Shown: piece by piece, positions 14,847 to 42,116 of the stretch | How positions within the stretch are numbered: position 1 is the stretch's first letter | How the letters are laid out: the number at the start of each line of letters is the position of its first letter | NCBI GenBank assembly: GCA_049997815.1 | Contig: JBEKVQ010000002.1 | Coordinates: 10,483-74,482 of the forward strand | Source: Minisyncoccia bacterium | GTDB taxonomy: Bacteria; Patescibacteriota; Minisyncoccia; UBA6257; GWB1-50-10 | Reading direction: 5' to 3' | DNA: 64,000 bases | Notes under the pieces: model-generated | Database searches by the model: none | What the model saw: the letters and a program-made list of their open reading frames with translations, nothing else | What the model was told of the DNA's origin: nothing | Position numbers and translations under genes: made by a program

Positions 14847-16010
14847 CTAATATGTCCGGCTGAAAGCTCTTTTCTGTTTGCCGGACTTATGGGTATACCC
14901 GATTACGGTGAAGCGCTTCTTTGAAAATGGCGACCTCTTGATCTTGTACCCGAAAATATCGGAATTTTCGCAATGTACTAGGCCGATTACGCTGTCGTCG
15001 ACCGCCACTCCCTGTCTCGACTCGAAGTATCTTCTGTCCTGACCTTCCGGCGGAAGAATAATCTCTGCTGCTACGCGGCCATCTGGTAGGAACTTAACAT
15101 GTGTGACGGTATCGAACCTGTTTTCCCATAGCTTACCATCAACTGCGACGGTTTCAGTTCTAGAACCAAGTTTCTCGACAGAAACGGGGATTGCGACCCT
15201 GCCATTCTCATCAAACGCCATCCAGAATCCATCGACGGTAACGAAATCCGTTCCCCATGCCTTGCCATCAACAGCGATCGTCCATCGCGGCTTCAATCCT
15301 CGCTGCTGGATACTCAGACTTGTCGTGAGCGGAACCACGCATTTGCCGTTCGGGGTAAAATGCGGCTGGAATATTTGCTGATTGTTTATGTATGCGTGAT
15401 TAGCACACAGCATAAATGAGTCTGACGCACTGTCGCCGCTATAACGTTCCGGCACCAGGCAAGCCAATGAATCCCATGGTTTATCATCAGCGACAACCAC
15501 CACTTTTCTGTCTCGGATCACGGTGACTGCCAGTCTTCGGCTGTCTGGACTGAATTTGGGAGTTCTCCAATAAAACTCCTCATCGAATGAGGTTCCCCAC
15601 AATTCGTCGTTGACGGCGATCCTAAACTTGCCATTCTCCTTGACAACAGCAGCTAAGCGATTGCCATCGGGGCTTAGTGTAAGAATGTACACCTTGTCGA
15701 ACCAATGGCTCCATGGTCGGGCACCCTCCATAACAATCGTTTCTTTAATCATTCCATCGTTCTCGATCGCTCCATCATGCTCATCAAACTTCGCCTTAAT
15801 GACAGCGACCAATCTTCTTGTCAGTTGATTTGGACATATGCCGTAGTATTGTGCGTCTACCATTTGATATCTTACTCCCTCAAAAAGGTGGCCGCTGCAC
15901 ATATCCTCAAGACAAATTCCTCCTATGGCGATCGATCGATGCAATACCACCTCGGGATTAGATTTCCGGTAAAGATGGTAATCAACCGTATCCTGCCGTT
16001 TCGATTTCAC
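14847..16010 (-). CDS. WG-repeat-containing protein (in an AT-rich islet)
   Basis: Repeated AVDGKAWGT / AVNDELWGT / AVDGKLWEN units spaced about 40-60 aa apart. The gene and both flanks are visibly AT-rich. Confidence 0.55.
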   Translation of the reverse strand: MKSKRQDTVDYHLYRKSNPEVVLHRSIAIGGICLEDMCSGHLFEGVRYQMVDAQYYGICPNQLTRRLVAVIKAKFDEHDGAIENDGMIKETIVMEGARPWSHWFDKVYILTLSPDGNRLAAVVKENGKFRIAVNDELWGTSFDEEFYWRTPKFSPDSRRLAVTVIRDRKVVVVADDKPWDSLACLVPERYSGDSASDSFMLCANHAYINNQQIFQPHFTPNGKCVVPLTTSLSIQQRGLKPRWTIAVDGKAWGTDFVTVDGFWMAFDENGRVAIPVSVEKLGSRTETVAVDGKLWENRFDTVTHVKFLPDGRVAAEIILPPEGQDRRYFESRQGVAVDDSVIGLVHCENSDIFGYKIKRSPFSKKRFTVIGYTHKSGKQKRAFSRTY

Positions 16011-16198: not shown

Positions 16199-16327
16199 GT
16201 GGAGATGGCGAGAATTGGCCTCGCCTCTCGCTCTGCTCGGGCTGGCCACCGCCTCGCGTGCCTTCGGCACATGCTCCGGCGTTCAATTCCGCCCGCAAGA
16301 CAAGCAGTTGTCTTGCTCATCTCCCCA
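16199..16327 (-). repeat. ssrA-derived mini element: 19-bp direct copy of the tmRNA 3' end plus inverted/5'-like copy, bracketing about 95 bp with a perfect 9-bp hairpin
   Basis: gtggagatggcgagaattg occurs at 16199-16217 and again at the ssrA 3' end (16372-16390). catctcccca at 16318-16327 matches the reverse complement of the same acceptor strand (tmRNA 5'-end-like GGGGAGAUG on the minus strand). Internal hairpin GCAAGACAA-CUGC-UUGUCUUGC. Confidence 0.5.
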
Positions 16328-16372
16328 TGAAACCAAAATATCCATAGGCAAGCTATGGACATTTTGATTTGT

Positions 16373-16683
16373 GGAGATGGCGAGAATTGAACTCGCGTAC
16401 GGAACGATTCGGCAAACGTTTCTACAAGTTTATTCCCTCGGTTGCCCTTGGGACGGTTTTGCTTTCCTGTTTTAGCGAAGGATACGGAAAGCGGATCTCC
16501 TCCGCGAACTCACGATATGACACCGGTTGATCCCTAGTGAGTATCAGGGCCGATGCGGCATTACGCGAAGGCGAATGCCGGAGCTACCGTTTTGTTGGCA
16601 GTTATCTTAGAGGCCGTTTTAGTGAGCGGCCGCCTCAGCTTGCTGCGCCTGCGTCGTCTATCCCGTCGAAGCCGATCATCCCC
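16373..16683 (-). ncRNA. ssrA: tmRNA (ssrA), one-piece, about 311 nt, CCA not encoded
   Basis: Minus-strand 5' end GGGGAUGAUCGGCUUCGACGGGAUAGACG closely matches the tmRNA consensus (GGGGCUGAUUCUGGAUUCGACGGGAU in E. coli). 3' end GCGAG-UUCAAUU-CUCGC-CAUCUCC-A has a T-arm and an acceptor strand pairing with G3.U70. Internal reading frame GCC AAC AAA ACG GUA GCU CCG GCA UUC GCC UUC GCG UAA gives tag (A)NKTVAPAFAFA. Lies immediately downstream of smpB. Confidence 0.85.
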
Positions 16684-16699: not shown

Positions 16700-17143
16700 T
16701 TACTCTCGGAGGGCGCGTTCGATCTCCTTCTTGGTCTCTCTCTTCCTGATGATTTCACGCTTATCCGATTTCTTGAGGGGTTTGCCCAATCCTAGTTTGA
16801 TTTTGATAAGGCCGCGCTTAGTGTAGACCTCGAGCGGCAGGAGCGTCAAACCCTTCTCATGAAGCTTGCCCGAAAGGTAGCTCGTCTCTTTTTTGGTGAG
16901 CAAAAGCCGCCGGGAGCGCGCCGGGTCATATTCTTTTGGGGTGTTCTTGGGTTGATAGGGCGGGATGTGGGAATTCAAAAGCCACACCTCGTTATGGCGG
17001 ATGACCGCGTAGCTGCCCGCTATCTGCATGTGGCCGTTTTTGACGGCTTTTACCTCGTAGCCCTTCAGTTCTATGCCCGCCTCGAACTTCTCCTCTATCT
17101 CGTAATCGAAGTTCGCGCGCTTGTTGAATGCCAAAGACGACAT
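16700..17143 (-). CDS. smpB: SsrA-binding protein
   Basis: FNKRANFDYEIEEKFEAGIELKGYEVK...IAGSYAVI...LLLTKKE is a characteristic SmpB sequence. Confidence 0.9.
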   Translation of the reverse strand: MSSLAFNKRANFDYEIEEKFEAGIELKGYEVKAVKNGHMQIAGSYAVIRHNEVWLLNSHIPPYQPKNTPKEYDPARSRRLLLTKKETSYLSGKLHEKGLTLLPLEVYTKRGLIKIKLGLGKPLKKSDKREIIRKRETKKEIERALRE

Positions 17144-20712: not shown

Positions 20713-23700
20713 ATGTTAAAGAAACTGGATAAATTTTCCCTTCCGGAGATAGAGGAAAAAGTTCTGGAATTTTGGAAAACCGACAAAATCTTCGAAAAAT
20801 CTTTGACCAAGCGGGCCAAGGGCAAGAAATTCGTCTTCTACGAGGGCCCGCCGTCGGCGAATGCCCGGCCGGGCTTTCATCATATTCTCGCCCGTGTTTT
20901 CAAGGACGCCATTCCGCGCTTCAAGACAATGCGGGGTTTCTACGTGGCGCGGAGGGCCGGGTGGGATACCCATGGGCTTCCGATCGAGGTGCAGACGGAG
21001 AAAACGCTTGGTTTTAAGAACAAGCAGGACATCGAGCATTACGGAATAGCCAAGTTTAACCAGAAGTGCCGGGAGCTCGTCTGGCTCTACAAGGACGAAT
21101 GGGAAAAATTGACCGAGCGGATGGGCTTTTGGATAGACCTCAAAAGTCCCTATATTACCTACGAAAATTCTTACATCGAATCCGTCTGGAACATCCTAAA
21201 ACACGTCTGGGACAAGAAACTTTTGTATGAGGGCCACAAGGTGGTGCCGTGGTGTCCGCGGTGCGGAACGGGGCTTTCTTCGCATGAGTTGGCGCTGGGA
21301 TATAAGGAGGTCACGGATACATCCGTTTACATAAAATTCAAACTGAAACCGGGACAGAAATTCGGCAAATACACGGCGAAGGACTCGGCTTACATTCTGT
21401 CTTGGACGACAACCCCGTGGACCCTGCCGGGGAATATCGCGCTCGCAGTGGGAGAAAAAATCCCCTACACCGCGCTTCGCGTGAGGGGGACGAAAGAGCT
21501 CTATATTCTTGCGAGTGAGCTTATAAAAACCGTTTTTAAAGACCAAGAAATTGAGATCGTGCATGAAGACATAAAAGGCAAGGATCTGATCGATCTTGAA
21601 TACGAACCGCTTTTCGACATTCCGGCGCTGAGATCAAAAACATCGTACAGGATTTATAATGCGAAGTTCGTGACGACGACTGATGGCACGGGCGTGGTGC
21701 ACACGGCCGTGATGTACGGCGAGGACGACTACAATCTCGGAAAGGAAGTCGGCTTGCCGCAAGTCCACACGGTGGATGAGCAGGGAAGGTTCACGAAAGA
21801 CGTGAAGGGATTTGCCGGAATGTTCGTGAAGGCGAAAGAGACGGAGGATAAGGTAATTGAATATTTGAAATCCAGAAATCTTCTCTTGAGAACCGAGCCC
21901 TATAAGCATGAGTATCCCTTTTGCTGGCGTTGCGGTACCCCGCTTTTGTACTATGCCCGCGATTCATGGTTCATTTCGATGTCGAAGCTCCGCGCGCAGC
22001 TTCTCGCGGCGAACAATAAGGTCAACTGGATACCGGAAAATATCAAGGACGGTCGCTTCGGCGAATGGCTGAAAGACGTGAAAGATTGGGCCATCTCCCG
22101 AGAGCGCTACTGGGGTACGCCGTTGCCCATCTGGGTCTGCGAAAAGTGCGGGCACAAGAAATGCATCGGAAGCATTGCGGAATTGGAGGAAGGCCGGAAG
22201 AAGAGCTCGAACCGCTATATATTAGTGCGTCACGGTGAAGCGGAGAACAACCTGGAAAATATCATTGACCACGTCTTCGAGAAATCCCGCTCCAATCTCA
22301 CGCTTAAGGGACATACCCAGATTGATAGGCTGGGCAAGAAGTTTTCAAAAGAGAAGATAGACGCTATTTTTGCCTCGGATTTTCCGCGCACTAAGCAGAC
22401 GGCCGACATTTTGGCCTCGGCCTTGGGGGTAAAAAAAGTAAATCTCGACAAGCGATTAAGAGAAGCCGATCTGGGAATTTTGGAAGGTCACCAGGCATAC
22501 GAATATCACAAGTTTTATCCGGACGACATGGAAAAATTTGCGAACCCGCCGGAGGGTGGAGAGAGCCTGAATCAATTGAGAGGACGCCTTAATGATTTTA
22601 TAGAAGAAAGAGAAAAAGAGTTTTCCGGAAAGACCATCTTAGTCGTGAGCCATGAATACCCAATTTGGATGTTTGCGAGCATTCTCGAGGGTTGGGGCAA
22701 CCGCGAGGCGGTCGAGGAAAAACATCGGCGCGGAGAGGATTTTATAGACAGAGGCGAGGCGCAGGAATACCGCTTTCATAATTTGCCGAGAAATGACAAC
22801 GGTGAGATGGATATTCACCGCCCCTATTTGGATGATATAAAATTCGTCTGTGGAAAGTGCGGCGGAAAGATGGAACGCGTGAAAGAGGTGATTGATGTAT
22901 GGTTCGACTCCGGCGCGATGCCGTTCGCGCAGGACCACTGGCCGTTCTCCAAAGACCGAAAGCTGGATTATCCGGCGGACTTTATCTCCGAGGCGATGGA
23001 CCAGACCCGCGGCTGGTTCTACACTCTCCTCGCCATAGGCGTTCTAATGGGTAAAAACAGCCCCTACAGGAACGTTATCTGCCTGGGACTCATATTGGAT
23101 AAGAACGGCCAAAAGATGTCCAAATCCAAGGGAAACGTCGTGGACCCGTGGGAGATGATGAAGAAGCATGGCGTAGACGCCATCCGCTGGTACTTTTATA
23201 CCGTTAATCCGCCGGGCGAACCGAAGAAGTTCGACGAACTCGAACTTACAAAAACCTCCCGTCAGCTCTTCTCTTTGCTTTATAACTCGTTCGTATTTTT
23301 CGAAACATACAAAAGTAAGAATTCAAAATTCAAAATTCAAAATTTGAAATTCACGAACGTGCTGGATAAATGGATTTTGAGTCGCCTGAACGAAACGATT
23401 GATGTAGCCACTAAGAGATTGAATGAATATGCAATCGGAGATGCGGGGCGGGTGATGGAGAATTTCATCGGCGACCTTTCACGGTGGTATATCCGCCGTT
23501 CCCGGAGGCGTTTTCAGAAGCCGGATGATGGGAAGGATTACGCGGCGGCCTCAAGCGTGCTGGGCTATGTGCTTTTGGAAACGAGCAAGCTCATGGCGCC
23601 TCTTGCCCCGTTCTTTGCCGAAGCGCTCTATAAGTCGCTCTCAGATGACGAGTCCGTCCATCTGGCCGATTGGCCGAAGGTGGATAAGAAACTCGTGGAG

Positions 23701-24207
23701 AGAAAGCTCTCCGCAGCGATGGAAGAAGTGAGGGGTATCGCAAGCGCGGTTCTCTCGAAGCGGGCCGAGGTTGGGATTAAGGTTCGCCAGCCGCTTCAGA
23801 CGCTAAAAATCAAGGATATTAAATTAAAAATACAGAAAGAATTGCTAGGTATCCTAAAGGACGAGGTAAACGTGAAAGATGTGAAGTTCGATGCCAAGCT
23901 AAAGACCGACTTCGAGCTGGATACCCGGATAACCCACGAACTCAAAGAGGAGGGAATTCTGCGGGAGCTTATCCGCACCATTCAAGACCTACGCCAGGAT
24001 GCGAAGATGAAACCGCAGGACATCGTTCTACTTTTTCTTGACGGTCCCGATGAATTGAAAATGATTGTCTCAAAGTTCGGCGAGCTCTTAAAGAAAGAGG
24101 TGAAAGCGAAGAGAATCGAATTAGGAAAGCCGCCCAGATTTGATGCGGAGATTGAAACTAGGATAGAAGAAATGCCGGTTTGGGTGGGGATTAAAAAGGC
24201 GAACTAG
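20713..24207 (+). CDS. ileS: isoleucyl-tRNA synthetase carrying an inserted histidine-phosphatase (PGAM-like) domain of about 205 aa
   Basis: WTTTPWTLPGN, KMSKSKGN and the zinc knuckles CEKCGH / CGKCGG are all present. Between them (aa 495-700 or so; nt 22195-22809) sits RYILVRHGEAENN...LKGHTQIDRLG...SDFPRTKQTA...ILVVSHEYPIWM, which looks like a complete RHG/His phosphatase fold. Total 1164 aa. Confidence 0.9.
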   Translation: MLKKLDKFSLPEIEEKVLEFWKTDKIFEKSLTKRAKGKKFVFYEGPPSANARPGFHHILARVFKDAIPRFKTMRGFYVARRAGWDTHGLPIEVQTEKTLGFKNKQDIEHYGIAKFNQKCRELVWLYKDEWEKLTERMGFWIDLKSPYITYENSYIESVWNILKHVWDKKLLYEGHKVVPWCPRCGTGLSSHELALGYKEVTDTSVYIKFKLKPGQKFGKYTAKDSAYILSWTTTPWTLPGNIALAVGEKIPYTALRVRGTKELYILASELIKTVFKDQEIEIVHEDIKGKDLIDLEYEPLFDIPALRSKTSYRIYNAKFVTTTDGTGVVHTAVMYGEDDYNLGKEVGLPQVHTVDEQGRFTKDVKGFAGMFVKAKETEDKVIEYLKSRNLLLRTEPYKHEYPFCWRCGTPLLYYARDSWFISMSKLRAQLLAANNKVNWIPENIKDGRFGEWLKDVKDWAISRERYWGTPLPIWVCEKCGHKKCIGSIAELEEGRKKSSNRYILVRHGEAENNLENIIDHVFEKSRSNLTLKGHTQIDRLGKKFSKEKIDAIFASDFPRTKQTADILASALGVKKVNLDKRLREADLGILEGHQAYEYHKFYPDDMEKFANPPEGGESLNQLRGRLNDFIEEREKEFSGKTILVVSHEYPIWMFASILEGWGNREAVEEKHRRGEDFIDRGEAQEYRFHNLPRNDNGEMDIHRPYLDDIKFVCGKCGGKMERVKEVIDVWFDSGAMPFAQDHWPFSKDRKLDYPADFISEAMDQTRGWFYTLLAIGVLMGKNSPYRNVICLGLILDKNGQKMSKSKGNVVDPWEMMKKHGVDAIRWYFYTVNPPGEPKKFDELELTKTSRQLFSLLYNSFVFFETYKSKNSKFKIQNLKFTNVLDKWILSRLNETIDVATKRLNEYAIGDAGRVMENFIGDLSRWYIRRSRRRFQKPDDGKDYAAASSVLGYVLLETSKLMAPLAPFFAEALYKSLSDDESVHLADWPKVDKKLVERKLSAAMEEVRGIASAVLSKRAEVGIKVRQPLQTLKIKDIKLKIQKELLGILKDEVNVKDVKFDAKLKTDFELDTRITHELKEEGILRELIRTIQDLRQDAKMKPQDIVLLFLDGPDELKMIVSKFGELLKKEVKAKRIELGKPPRFDAEIETRIEEMPVWVGIKKAN

Positions 24208-38395: not shown

Positions 38396-38403
38396 ATCTA
38401 ATT

Positions 38404-38520
38404 TGTCGGGCCGCCGGGAATTGAACGTCGCTTCGCTCCCTAACACCCAGCGGTTTTAGTATTTCCGCCACGGGGAAACTTCCGTTTCCCCGACCCCTTT
38501 CCCGTTCAAATCCCGGCCCG
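38404..38520 (-). repeat. tRNA-Pro-derived element: a direct copy (16/16 + 6/7) and an inverted copy (17 nt) of the tRNA-Pro 3' end bracketing about 75 bp with a perfect 8-bp hairpin
   Basis: tgtcgggccgccggga at 38404-38419 repeats the 3' end of tRNA-Pro at 38546-38561. cccgttcaaatcccggcccg at 38501-38520 is its near-reverse complement. Internal hairpin CGGGGAAAC-uucc-GUUUCCCCG. Confidence 0.5.
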
Positions 38521-38545
38521 AAAAACGATTCTCGATTTTATGTTG

Positions 38546-38616
38546 TCGGGCCGCCGGGATTTGAACCCGAACTAAATCCTCCCAAAGGACTCGTGCTACC
38601 GTTACACTACGGCCCG
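38546..38616 (-). tRNA. tRNA-Pro (anticodon UGG)
   Basis: Acceptor CGGGCCG/CGGCCCG; D-arm GUGU-AACGGUA-GCAC; anticodon stem AGUCC/GGAUU with loop UUUGGGA (G37); T-arm UCGGG-UUCAAAU-CCCGG; discriminator A. Confidence 0.85.
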
Positions 38617-38654
38617 CCTCTCCCTTTAAACTATCCGATTTTTACTATAGAATC

Positions 38655-41355: not shown

Positions 41356-41730
41356 TTATAATTCAAATTTTCTTCCCTGATAATTCATCGCTTCTTGAAC
41401 AAGTAGTGCATCGTTTTTTGTGCTGTGCTTTATGGTGTGGCAGTTGGCACAGAGGAGCTCGCATTTTTTCAGTTCACTTTTTATCACTTCCCATTTTTTA
41501 TTCGCAACATTTCCTATTATAAAATCTTTCTTTTTAGGATTCGTATGGTGGAATTGAAGTGCAGCTTGATTACCGCGCCAACCACAATTCACACATTTCC
41601 CTCCAAGGTACTTTATGGCTGCCGCTTTGGTCCGAAATCTCCTTACCTTCGTGTTGCAAGAGCCGCATCTAGCCCTGCATCTGCTTTGGTAGTCTTTAAA
41701 CGCGTTGCCACACAATTTACATATCCTCAT
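41356..41730 (-). CDS. free-standing HNH endonuclease (Cys-rich, zinc-finger flanked)
   Basis: Multiple CxxC pairs and a C-terminal LLCANCHTIKH HNH core. AT-rich gene lying 90 bp from the intron-containing tRNA. Confidence 0.65.
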   Translation of the reverse strand: MRICKLCGNAFKDYQSRCRARCGSCNTKVRRFRTKAAAIKYLGGKCVNCGWRGNQAALQFHHTNPKKKDFIIGNVANKKWEVIKSELKKCELLCANCHTIKHSTKNDALLVQEAMNYQGRKFEL

Positions 41731-41818: not shown

Positions 41819-42112
41819 GCCGCGGTAGCTCAGTGGTAGAGCGCTACCCTAAACTCTTTGGGGCCTTCCGCAGTAATGTGGATTGAATAATTGGGTGAAT
41901 TCGGGGGAAACTTCTTAAAAGAAATAATCCCGAGCCAAGCTCTGATGGGATCCGTCAGTTGGCGGAGGTATCGGAGAAGGTGTAGAGACTAGTAGGTGAG
42001 TCCCAACGATAATCCTACGCAAGCGCCCAACTTCCTTTTAGAAGGAAGATGATATAGTCCAAGCAAACCTTGGAAGAGGTAGGCGTCGGGTGTTCGATTC
42101 ACCCCCGCGGCA
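41819..42112 (+). tRNA. tRNA-Phe (anticodon GAA) interrupted by a 222-nt group I intron in the anticodon loop
   Basis: 5' exon GCCGCGGUAGCUCAGUGGUAGAGCGCUACCCU (41819-41850). 3' exon GAAGAGGUAGGCGUCGGGUGUUCGAUUCACCCCCGCGGCA (42073-42112). The joined exons fold as a canonical tRNA that is very similar to E. coli tRNA-Phe. Confidence 0.75.
41851..42072 (+). ncRNA. group I (IC3-like) self-splicing intron
   Basis: Exon U33 precedes the 5' splice site, which can pair CCCU.GGGG with intron nt 10-13 (P1). The intron ends in G. Contains GAGCCAAGCU and AAGGUGUAGAGACUAGUAGG segments that closely match the P7/P3 cores of bacterial tRNA introns (for example Azoarcus/Anabaena). Confidence 0.7.
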
Positions 42113-42116
42113 CAAA

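Follow-up and report, generated by a model that had tools for sequence, protein, structure and literature searches.

A structured non-coding element at the 3′ end of tRNA-Pro in a Minisyncoccia bacterium, a probably mobile member of an element family in Patescibacteria

Integrative elements (islands and prophages) that occupy the 3′ part of transfer RNA (tRNA) and transfer-messenger RNA (tmRNA) genes insert between the T-loop and the 3′ end, restore the gene with a copy borne by the element, leave a second 3′-end copy as a direct repeat, and form tandem arrays at one tRNA. Free-standing homing-endonuclease genes (e.g. phage T4 seg/mob and the fungal mitochondrial GIY-YIG/LAGLIDADG open reading frames, ORFs) use conserved motifs near gene ends, keep the gene intact through a second copy of its end, and show mainly synonymous differences between the copies. 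Miniature inverted-repeat transposable elements (MITEs), REPINs and palindromic elements derived from IS200/IS605 are small non-coding sequences rich in hairpins, occur in many copies and are presumably moved in trans. Phage CTX attP(+) and integron attC carry inverted target-like sequences 60-100 nt apart, in an imperfect, bulged stem resembling the double-stranded target, while group II intron exon-binding sites, IS110 bridge RNA and IS200/605 omega RNAs set a segment of 10-25 nt, complementary to the insertion site and spanning the insertion point, beside a structured scaffold. Here we describe a locus that is like each of these in part, a short element directly after the tRNA-Pro gene in a stretch of 64,000 nucleotides from a Minisyncoccia bacterium (contig JBEKVQ010000002.1, positions 10,483 to 74,482), the whole of which is called the window below.

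Positions 38403-38542 of the window probably constitute a non-autonomous, non-coding insertion element of about 140 bp in tRNA-Pro, which moves horizontally and as a unit by means of an enzyme acting in trans. The element is a member of a large family that is widespread in Patescibacteria and undescribed so far as we found, the literature (including a search with the core sequence itself) yielding no description of it. The layout common to its copies (genomic loci compared here are numbered L001 onwards) is the end of the host gene (direct repeat 1, DR1), a spacer, an inverted copy of the target (inverted repeat, IR), a conserved core, a third hairpin, the motif CGACG, and a further copy of the gene end (direct repeat 2, DR2). 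Alignment of the tails shows CGACG to be nearly invariant across loci and the third hairpin to vary in length. The coordinates of the features are collected in Table 1.

In the window the tRNA-Pro gene lies on the minus strand and the element stands 3′ of it in tRNA orientation, DR1 being the 3′ part of the gene from the T-loop onward. The original prediction for this locus, made from the letters alone, had reported a direct repeat of the tRNA-Pro 3′ end, an inverted copy and a perfect hairpin between the repeats, all of which are there. DR1 and DR2 are identical at 23 of 24 nt, DR2 lies 10 nt from the stop codon of the neighbouring gpmI gene, and the repeat pattern GTTCAANTCCCGGCGGCCCGACAA matches twice in the window and not once in 100 shuffles, even with three mismatches allowed. 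The inverted copy lacks 3 nt relative to tRNA-Pro. Inverted arms are found at 38499-38517/38553-38571 (19 nt, 89% complementary), 38413-38427/38503-38517 (15 nt, 93%) and 38402-38413/38514-38525 (12 nt, 92%), and the IR is predicted to pair with either repeat (duplex energies of -32.1 kcal/mol at the DR1 site and -31.3 at the DR2 site). Folding of the segment beats that of shuffles on both strands (z = -3.1 for minus and -4.7 for plus). At most other loci a terminator-like hairpin occupies the place of the window's spacer. A scan of the window's remaining four tRNA genes found no such duplication at any of them, and neither ARAGORN nor Rfam (E up to 10) detected a tRNA cloverleaf at 38403-38520, the sole call being the true tRNA-Pro. 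A co-transcript of tRNA-Pro and element (38398-38620, minus strand) is predicted to fold with the tRNA 5′ acceptor strand paired to DR2 and with the T-arm and 3′ end of tRNA-Pro itself paired to the IR, resembling a tRNA with an insert of 140 nt in its T-loop; co-transcription could therefore compete with correct folding of the tRNA.

The approximately 75 bp between the repeats had been taken for unique sequence, and contain instead a conserved core of 68 nt that is known from about 90 metagenome contigs and three Patescibacteria genomes. A search pattern derived from three homologues at the tRNA-Pro site (L005, L007 and L008) matched 92 metagenome stretches, about three of them by chance; four blocks of the core are invariant merely because this pattern demanded them. 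The 68 distinct cores aligned without difficulty, and 97.8% of cells are paired in this alignment, with strong support for two hairpins and one long-range pair. Cells with double changes number 152, versus 56 in shuffles (none of 500 shuffles was as high), and the pairing signal collapses in controls with a slid register. At the lone pair 37:56, 47 sequences have C-G and 19 have U-A. Selection acts on the base pairing of the core. On the tRNA-sense strand, the hairpin-1 loop is GNRA in 59 of the 68 cores and there are 13 G.U pairs versus 7 A.C. The architecture read from the sequence is of conserved joining strands around a four-way junction, with a sharp CGACG|target boundary.

A covariance model of this core (family 1, model R1) finds exactly one copy in the window. 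Over the metagenome loci it finds 95 copies, mostly at 63-97 bits, with five weaker, divergent copies at 33-63 bits; divergent second copies are included in the total. Among 80 gpmI loci, clear matches (83-90 bits) are confined to L005, L007 and L008, and a match of 21 bits in L070 is probably due to chance. Rfam 15 has no family matching the core at the gathering threshold, and only chance-level matches at E up to 10, which rules out a known RNA family at both settings.

Flanking sequences differ at every locus, and each copy lies just outside the end of a conserved gene. Of 83 distinct loci, 48 follow tRNA genes (28 anticodon types) and are always co-oriented with them. Other targets are the 3′ ends of rpsI (S9) and ftsZ and, on the opposite strand and within conserved motifs, the 5′ ends of EF-G, LepA, BipA (all three at AH(I/V)D(H/A)GK), MetRS, TrxB and RNase HI. 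The most conserved sequences of the cell are hit: the T-loops of tRNAs, the P-loop of GTPases and the HIGH motif of an aminoacyl-tRNA synthetase. Direct repeats of 17-83 nt, present at nearly all loci, extend from the point of insertion as far as the gene terminus or a little past it, and the IR covers the insertion point. The spacer measures 0-150 nt and often holds a terminator hairpin, while the element as a whole is uniformly 120-250 bp in size. The IR of each locus pairs far better with its own flanks than with those of other loci (median -26.7 versus -17.1 kcal/mol upstream and -21.3 versus -14.5 downstream), and in 47 of 55 loci the intact site upstream gives a better match to it than the DR2 junction does. 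A direct repeat of the tRNA 3′ end flanks the insert as in tRNA islands, and no ORF lies between the repeats in about 83 loci. As in homing, a conserved motif near a gene end is used, the end is restored by a second copy, and there are signs of transfer between lineages. The arms are locus-specific and the duplications vary in length, in place of fixed terminal inverted repeats and a short target duplication of fixed length. Core sites like those of attC/dif (GTTRRRY/RYYYAAC) are not seen, the non-tRNA targets beginning GTCTAT, GCATAA, CAGGG or CATTCAC; tRNA arms that start with GTTC reflect the T-loop alone.

These targets also decide what the tRNA-like appearance of the window element means. 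Its 5′ arm on the minus strand had been read as the 5′ acceptor strand of the tRNA, and the whole as an acceptor/T-arm minihelix for RNase P, CCA-adding enzyme and EF-Tu. The arm is instead an inverted copy of the 3′ end, as the tmRNA locus described below makes clear, and the same core carries arms from the ends of protein genes (EF-G, LepA, BipA, MetRS, TrxB, RNase H, S9 and FtsZ). The helix is not closed by a T-loop and opens instead into a multi-hairpin junction, and L005 and L007 lack the acceptor-like closure. The minihelix idea fails because the likeness to tRNA follows from the target and not from the element.

The gene upstream of the element is gpmI, whose closest relatives are in Patescibacteria metagenome-assembled genomes at 75% identity. 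The order gpmI, tRNA-Pro(-), tRNA-Arg(+) is conserved in L003-L009, and L005, L007 and L008 have a homologous element at the same place in tRNA-Pro, which together with the approximately 90 copies elsewhere provides the conservation in relatives and the further examples that the original prediction had called for. Repeat and inverted copy track the tRNA-Pro sequence of each lineage (window, L005 and L007), the arm variants being CCCGG, CTCG or CTGGG in the 3′ strand of the T-stem and GGGCCG or GGGGCG in the acceptor stem. L004 is an empty site without the element; only 17 nt separate gpmI from the tRNA there, and the tRNA 3′ end is about 14 nt away from the gpmI stop codon. Five contigs of the same species, with identical gpmI protein, all have the element. 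Among them L178 has a compensatory change from G-C to A-U in hairpin 1 (38475/38488) and a loop change that preserves GNRA, and L180 has a C-G pair in hairpin 2 in place of an A.G mismatch (38455). The tRNA-Pro locus is a hot spot in relatives (L006:4740-4960, L009:4620-5010, L001:4558-4787): L006 and L009 each have an old tRNA-Pro gene interrupted by an insert that contains a complete new tRNA-Pro, and L001 has the tRNA-Arg/tRNA-Pro pair in the opposite orientation with respect to gpmI, with an inverted T-loop copy directly after tRNA-Pro, where the contig ends.

Evidence for movement comes from the protein-gene targets, where a comparison of DR1 with DR2 over 129 codons counts 16 changes at first, 3 at second and 74 at third codon positions; L174, L127 and L094 are among the loci whose repeats have diverged. 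The predominance of third-position differences indicates that both copies evolved as coding sequence, one of them in another lineage, and on this comparison the element moves horizontally between lineages. Tandem or nested arrays are seen in L108, L088 and L166. The IR and the downstream repeat of L112 and of L137 agree with each other and not with the neighbouring gene, and therefore the unit of IR, core and repeat is displaceable as a whole. The unit can be delimited in two ways, as repeat, spacer, IR and core or as IR, core, repeat and terminator, and these are circular permutations of each other, the expected product of Campbell-type insertion of a small circle. In its general form, the earlier idea of a mobile or templated mechanism that copies tRNA 3′ ends is upheld.

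Table 1. Positions of the element at tRNA-Pro, of its parts, and of the tmRNA locus in the window
Feature	Position	Strand	Basis or remark
tRNA-Pro(UGG) gene, intact	38545-38616	minus	ARAGORN; Rfam RF00005, 60.7 bits
DR1, GTTCAAATCCCGGCGGCCCGACAA	38543-38566	minus	from G53 of the T-arm to 3 nt beyond the discriminator base; repeat search
Spacer, CATAAAATCGAGAATCGTTTTT, weak hairpin and T5 run	38521-38542	minus	sequence
IR, inverted copy of the intact tRNA-Pro site (T-arm to acceptor 3′ strand)	38499-38520	minus	repeat search, folds
Conserved 68-nt core, family 1	38436-38503	minus	covariance model R1, 93.9 bits, E = 2e-23
Hairpin 1, perfect, 9 bp, GGAA loop	38471-38492	minus	sequence, covariation
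Hairpin 2	38440-38459	minus	covariation
Long-range pair	38467:38448	minus	covariation
Third hairpin, minimal form GCGAAGC	38430-38436	minus	alignment of tails
Junction motif CGACG	38426-38430	minus	alignment of tails
DR2, GTTCAATTCCCGGCGGCCCGACAA, further copy of the tRNA-Pro 3′ end	38403-38426	minus	repeat search; shuffle test
tmRNA gene	16371-16683	minus	last 17 nt repeated at 16199-16215
tmRNA terminator hairpin, between tmRNA gene and family-2 element	about 16335-16370	minus	
Family-2 element after tmRNA	16199-16330	minus	repeat, fold and block comparison

We propose that the element inserted into the tRNA-Pro gene in or at the T-loop, so that in tRNA orientation DR1, spacer, IR, 68-nt core, mini-hairpin with CGACG, and DR2 would follow one another, with DR1 now completing the functional tRNA-Pro and DR2 left outside the gene. 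The unit of gene-end copy, spacer, IR, core and hairpin would be transferred whole into the same conserved site of other genomes, most likely either by break-induced copying, as homing or as gene conversion between conserved sequences, or by Campbell-type insertion of a small folded single-stranded circle. The junction of such a free circle would run from the start of the repeat on the CGACG side into the spacer, ...GCGACGTTCAA(T/A)TCCCGGCGGCCCGACAACATAAAATCG. A nuclease or recombinase acting in trans would be required, because the element encodes no protein. The gene-end copy would preserve the host gene, the IR together with the target copy may mimic the target site as a duplex or act as a guide towards that site, and recruiting the enzyme would fall to the core.

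For an autonomous relative or a helper, the most promising candidates may be elements with GIY-YIG minigenes. Small GIY-YIG genes (∼90 aa) are common in R1-bearing contigs, and one subfamily has at least 249 homologues, in elements with the conserved terminal inverted repeats CTTCGGCAAGCTCAG... and ...CTGAGTTTACCGAAGG. Minigenes of ∼95 aa (L122:5000-5450, L192, L196, and L201 with the gene at 1201-1490), which we place among the free-standing homing-type genes, directly follow tRNA-Ser or tRNA-Gln 3′ ends, carry the terminal repeats CTTCGGCAAGCTCAG/CTGAGTTTACCGAAG, and are flanked by a duplication of 18-20 nt from the tRNA T-loop to the 3′ end, an insertion geometry identical to that of R1 elements at T-loops. 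Their end motif CCTGAG(C/T)TT(G/A)(C/T)CGAAGG is also the third hairpin of the R1 copies in L123 and L157. This 17-nt motif occurs alone as well, in tandem arrays (L020) and in terminator loops (L010 and L091). Other GIY-YIG genes are found within the anticodon region of a tRNA, where a 51-nt double-hairpin repeat flanks the gene (L175:2890-3320), at the tRNA-Arg 5′ end, accompanied by a 13-nt repeat (L168:1400-1800), and, between the arms of a 15-nt inverted repeat, at the apparent 5′ end of a gene for RNase P RNA (L124:380-720).

Several observations weigh against a horizontally moving unit served by a helper. Near R1 copies there is no excess of GIY-YIG genes (7 per 590 kb versus 2 per 340 kb), the window has none, and no R1 core stands beside the GIY-YIG genes of 22 further loci. 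As physically linked helpers these genes are ruled out, given the lack of enrichment and their absence from the inside of every R1 element, and geometry and end motif are kept as a lead. None of the 95 R1 copies contains an ORF, and no enzyme was found to go with them. The repeats of L090 (83 nt), L125 (66 nt) and L101 are perfect and reach past the gene end, and point to recent in-situ duplication or gene conversion in preference to an imported gene end. Comparison with the trailer of the empty site in L004 did not single out DR1 or DR2 as the native copy. The element is fixed in the five contigs of the species, among which no presence/absence polymorphism is seen, and the window has a single R1 copy. 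A terminator usually stands between host gene and IR, which makes expression of the core uncertain, and plain homing leaves the need for an inverted copy of the target unexplained.

Among other explanations, the most familiar is a decayed attL/attR remnant of a genomic island or prophage integrated in tRNA-Pro. The 3′ ends of tRNA and tmRNA genes are the classic integration sites that leave direct repeats of the 3′ end, and in other strains of the species an island with a large serine recombinase abuts the tmRNA 3′ end. The interior, however, is the covarying core of some 90 loci and is not decayed; sizes are uniform, protein-gene ends are targeted too, Pfam and PHROGs show no integrase beside either window element, and scans of viral contigs with core patterns gave chance matches or nothing. 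An integrase or prophage remnant is accordingly rejected, the neighbouring ORFs encoding no integrase and the ORF at 14847-16010 matching neither Pfam nor PHROGs, and we find this origin hardly credible. That the locus is a module serving the host, either as a mimic of the tRNA-end minihelix or in processing, termination or insulation of the adjacent gene, would agree with its fixation in the species, the purifying selection on its structure, its presence at the same site in three lineages and the predicted co-transcript fold that joins the tRNA 5′ strand to DR2. Such a role is improbable in view of the same core having protein-gene arms, including those of 5′ ends on the opposite strand, the loss of acceptor-like closure in L005 and L007, the absence of the element from L004, the tandem arrays, the signature of horizontal transfer in the repeats, and the lack of an Rfam match.

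Two further explanations keep the element mobile and differ in its folded form. In one, a unit of IR, core, hairpin, gene-end copy and terminator is transcribed, the IR pairs with the target, and target-primed synthesis of DNA leaves target duplications whose length varies. GNRA loops and an excess of G.U pairs on the tRNA-sense strand, the constant co-orientation with tRNA genes, the spread of duplication lengths (17-83 nt) and the IR-core-repeat units of L112 and L137 away from their cognate gene all suit an RNA intermediate, as does L116, where the third hairpin is followed by a T-run like a small-RNA terminator. Such a route is nonetheless unlikely: no reverse transcriptase lies near any copy, the terminator usually precedes the IR and no promoter is evident, and the third-codon-position divergence of the repeat copies is unlike that of a fresh target duplication. 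Moreover, no group II intron was detected in genomes of Patescibacteria (PMC13011429). In the other, which we rate similarly low, the element is folded single-stranded DNA whose IR and gene-end copy mimic the target duplex, and a recombinase of host or helper produces Campbell-type insertion of a circle of 140-250 nt. Imperfect stems with bulges and mismatches surround a structured centre, a circular unit removes the ambiguity of delimitation, terminators before the IR argue against a need for transcription, and the third hairpin has the minimal form GCGAAGC, a classic ultra-stable DNA mini-hairpin. XerCD and IntI, however, recognise fixed sequences, whereas here at least 15 unrelated targets go with one core; no recombinase lies nearby, and the strand preference of the GNRA loops fits RNA equally. 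As to the folded form itself, GNRA loops and G.U excess favour the tRNA-sense strand, while pre-IR terminators and GCGAAGC favour DNA.

Returning to the trans-mobilised insertion element that we prefer, one can conceive of core and target-complementary arm as a programmable recognition module, in which the folded RNA or single-stranded DNA pairs with the target and then either itself catalyses cleavage or ligation at CGACG|target or directs a structure-specific nuclease that has no DNA-binding domain (e.g. the ∼90-aa GIY-YIG protein). Ultra-small bacteria would then have a nucleic-acid-guided insertion element of a new class, a conjecture that we regard as doubtful.

The second locus of the window, after the tmRNA gene, had been described as having the same design. 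That locus is real and its design is analogous, but the cores differ. The last 17 nt of tmRNA are repeated exactly at 16199-16215, and the layout is the acceptor complement GGAGATG, a hairpin, an inverted copy of the T-arm, GCCGGAGC, a hairpin, GCGAGGCGGTGGCCAG, GAGCGAG, and the 17-nt direct repeat. The 5′ arm GGAGAUG is the perfect reverse complement of the tmRNA 3′ end and differs from the tmRNA 5′ end (GGGGAUG), and is therefore an inverted duplicate of the 3′ end. Model R1 gives this element 11.5 bits (E = 0.32), which rules out a single core for both window elements, and it is grouped instead with an element at tRNA-Ala in L150, with which it has in common GCCGGAGC, a hairpin, GCGAGGCGGTG(C/G)CCAG and GAGCGA. 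L150 additionally bears a family-1 copy at a neighbouring tRNA. Judged by these blocks there are at least two related, sister families of elements.

The tmRNA 3′ end is polymorphic among strains. L184/L190 and L186, with the same SmpB protein as the window (16700-17143), are identical to the window up to ...CGCCATCTCCAC and continue into an island that encodes a large serine recombinase of 518 aa and a resolvase of 148 aa; at that position the window has the terminator and the family-2 element instead. Downstream of the latter, the ORF at 14847-16010 (minus strand, 387 aa) has a repeat-rich look and possibly encodes a beta-propeller.

A Pfam scan covering 38 of the 70 window ORFs found none of the proteins of guide-bearing elements (reverse transcriptase/intron-encoded protein, DEDD recombinase, TnpA/TnpB/IscB), the sole relevant gene being an HNH gene beside a group I intron. 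The intron (Rfam RF00028 at 41841-42082, 69.4 bits) splits the anticodon loop of a tRNA gene at 41823-42115 (plus strand), which ARAGORN does not call, in line with the tRNA introns recently reported for Patescibacteria (PMC13011429). Just upstream of the split tRNA lies the free-standing HNH ORF (41356-41730, minus strand, 124 aa), which shares 42% identity with the HNH ORF that accompanies a tRNA group I intron of L088/L097. HNH endonuclease was rejected as helper, the gene going with the intron-bearing tRNA and being absent at other loci. Derivation of the core from a group I or II intron was likewise rejected: no intron model matches over the core, the 5′ exon has no terminal U, and the core is too small. 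Elsewhere in the window, a class I aminoacyl-tRNA synthetase (IleRS-like, 1164 aa; 20713-24207, plus strand) has a His_Phos_1 domain (residues 503-665) inserted in its catalytic domain.

Should this description hold, a layer of tiny, structured insertion elements goes unannotated in the genomes of Patescibacteria, and these elements leave their target genes working while moving between lineages. Contigs L001 and L182 end inside elements, and the elements appear to break assemblies there. The family accounts for recurrent duplicated tRNA 3′ ends that could otherwise be mistaken for pseudogenes or island scars. The combination of one core with freely changing, target-matched arms suggests recognition through base pairing and not through protein, which is of mechanistic and possibly biotechnological interest.

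The differences from the closest known systems can now be stated. Unlike the integrative elements of tRNA and tmRNA genes, the elements described here measure only 120-250 bp, have no integrase or other ORF, contain a folded core and an inverted copy of the target, and combine one core with many unrelated targets that include the ends of protein-coding genes. Homing-endonuclease genes have an ORF and fixed terminal repeats where these elements have the core and target-copied arms, and no physical linkage to GIY-YIG genes was found. In contrast to MITEs, REPINs and the IS200/IS605-derived palindromes, these elements lack both fixed terminal inverted repeats and a short target duplication of fixed length, their arms are locus-specific, and only the ends of conserved genes are used. 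CTX attP(+) and attC differ in that the arms here lack a dif or GTTRRRY consensus and change with each target, while the centre is conserved and not variable. Compared with the guide-bearing elements, the family has no protein gene, an unrelated scaffold without Rfam match and an additional sense copy of the target, and its arm may play the role of a guide.

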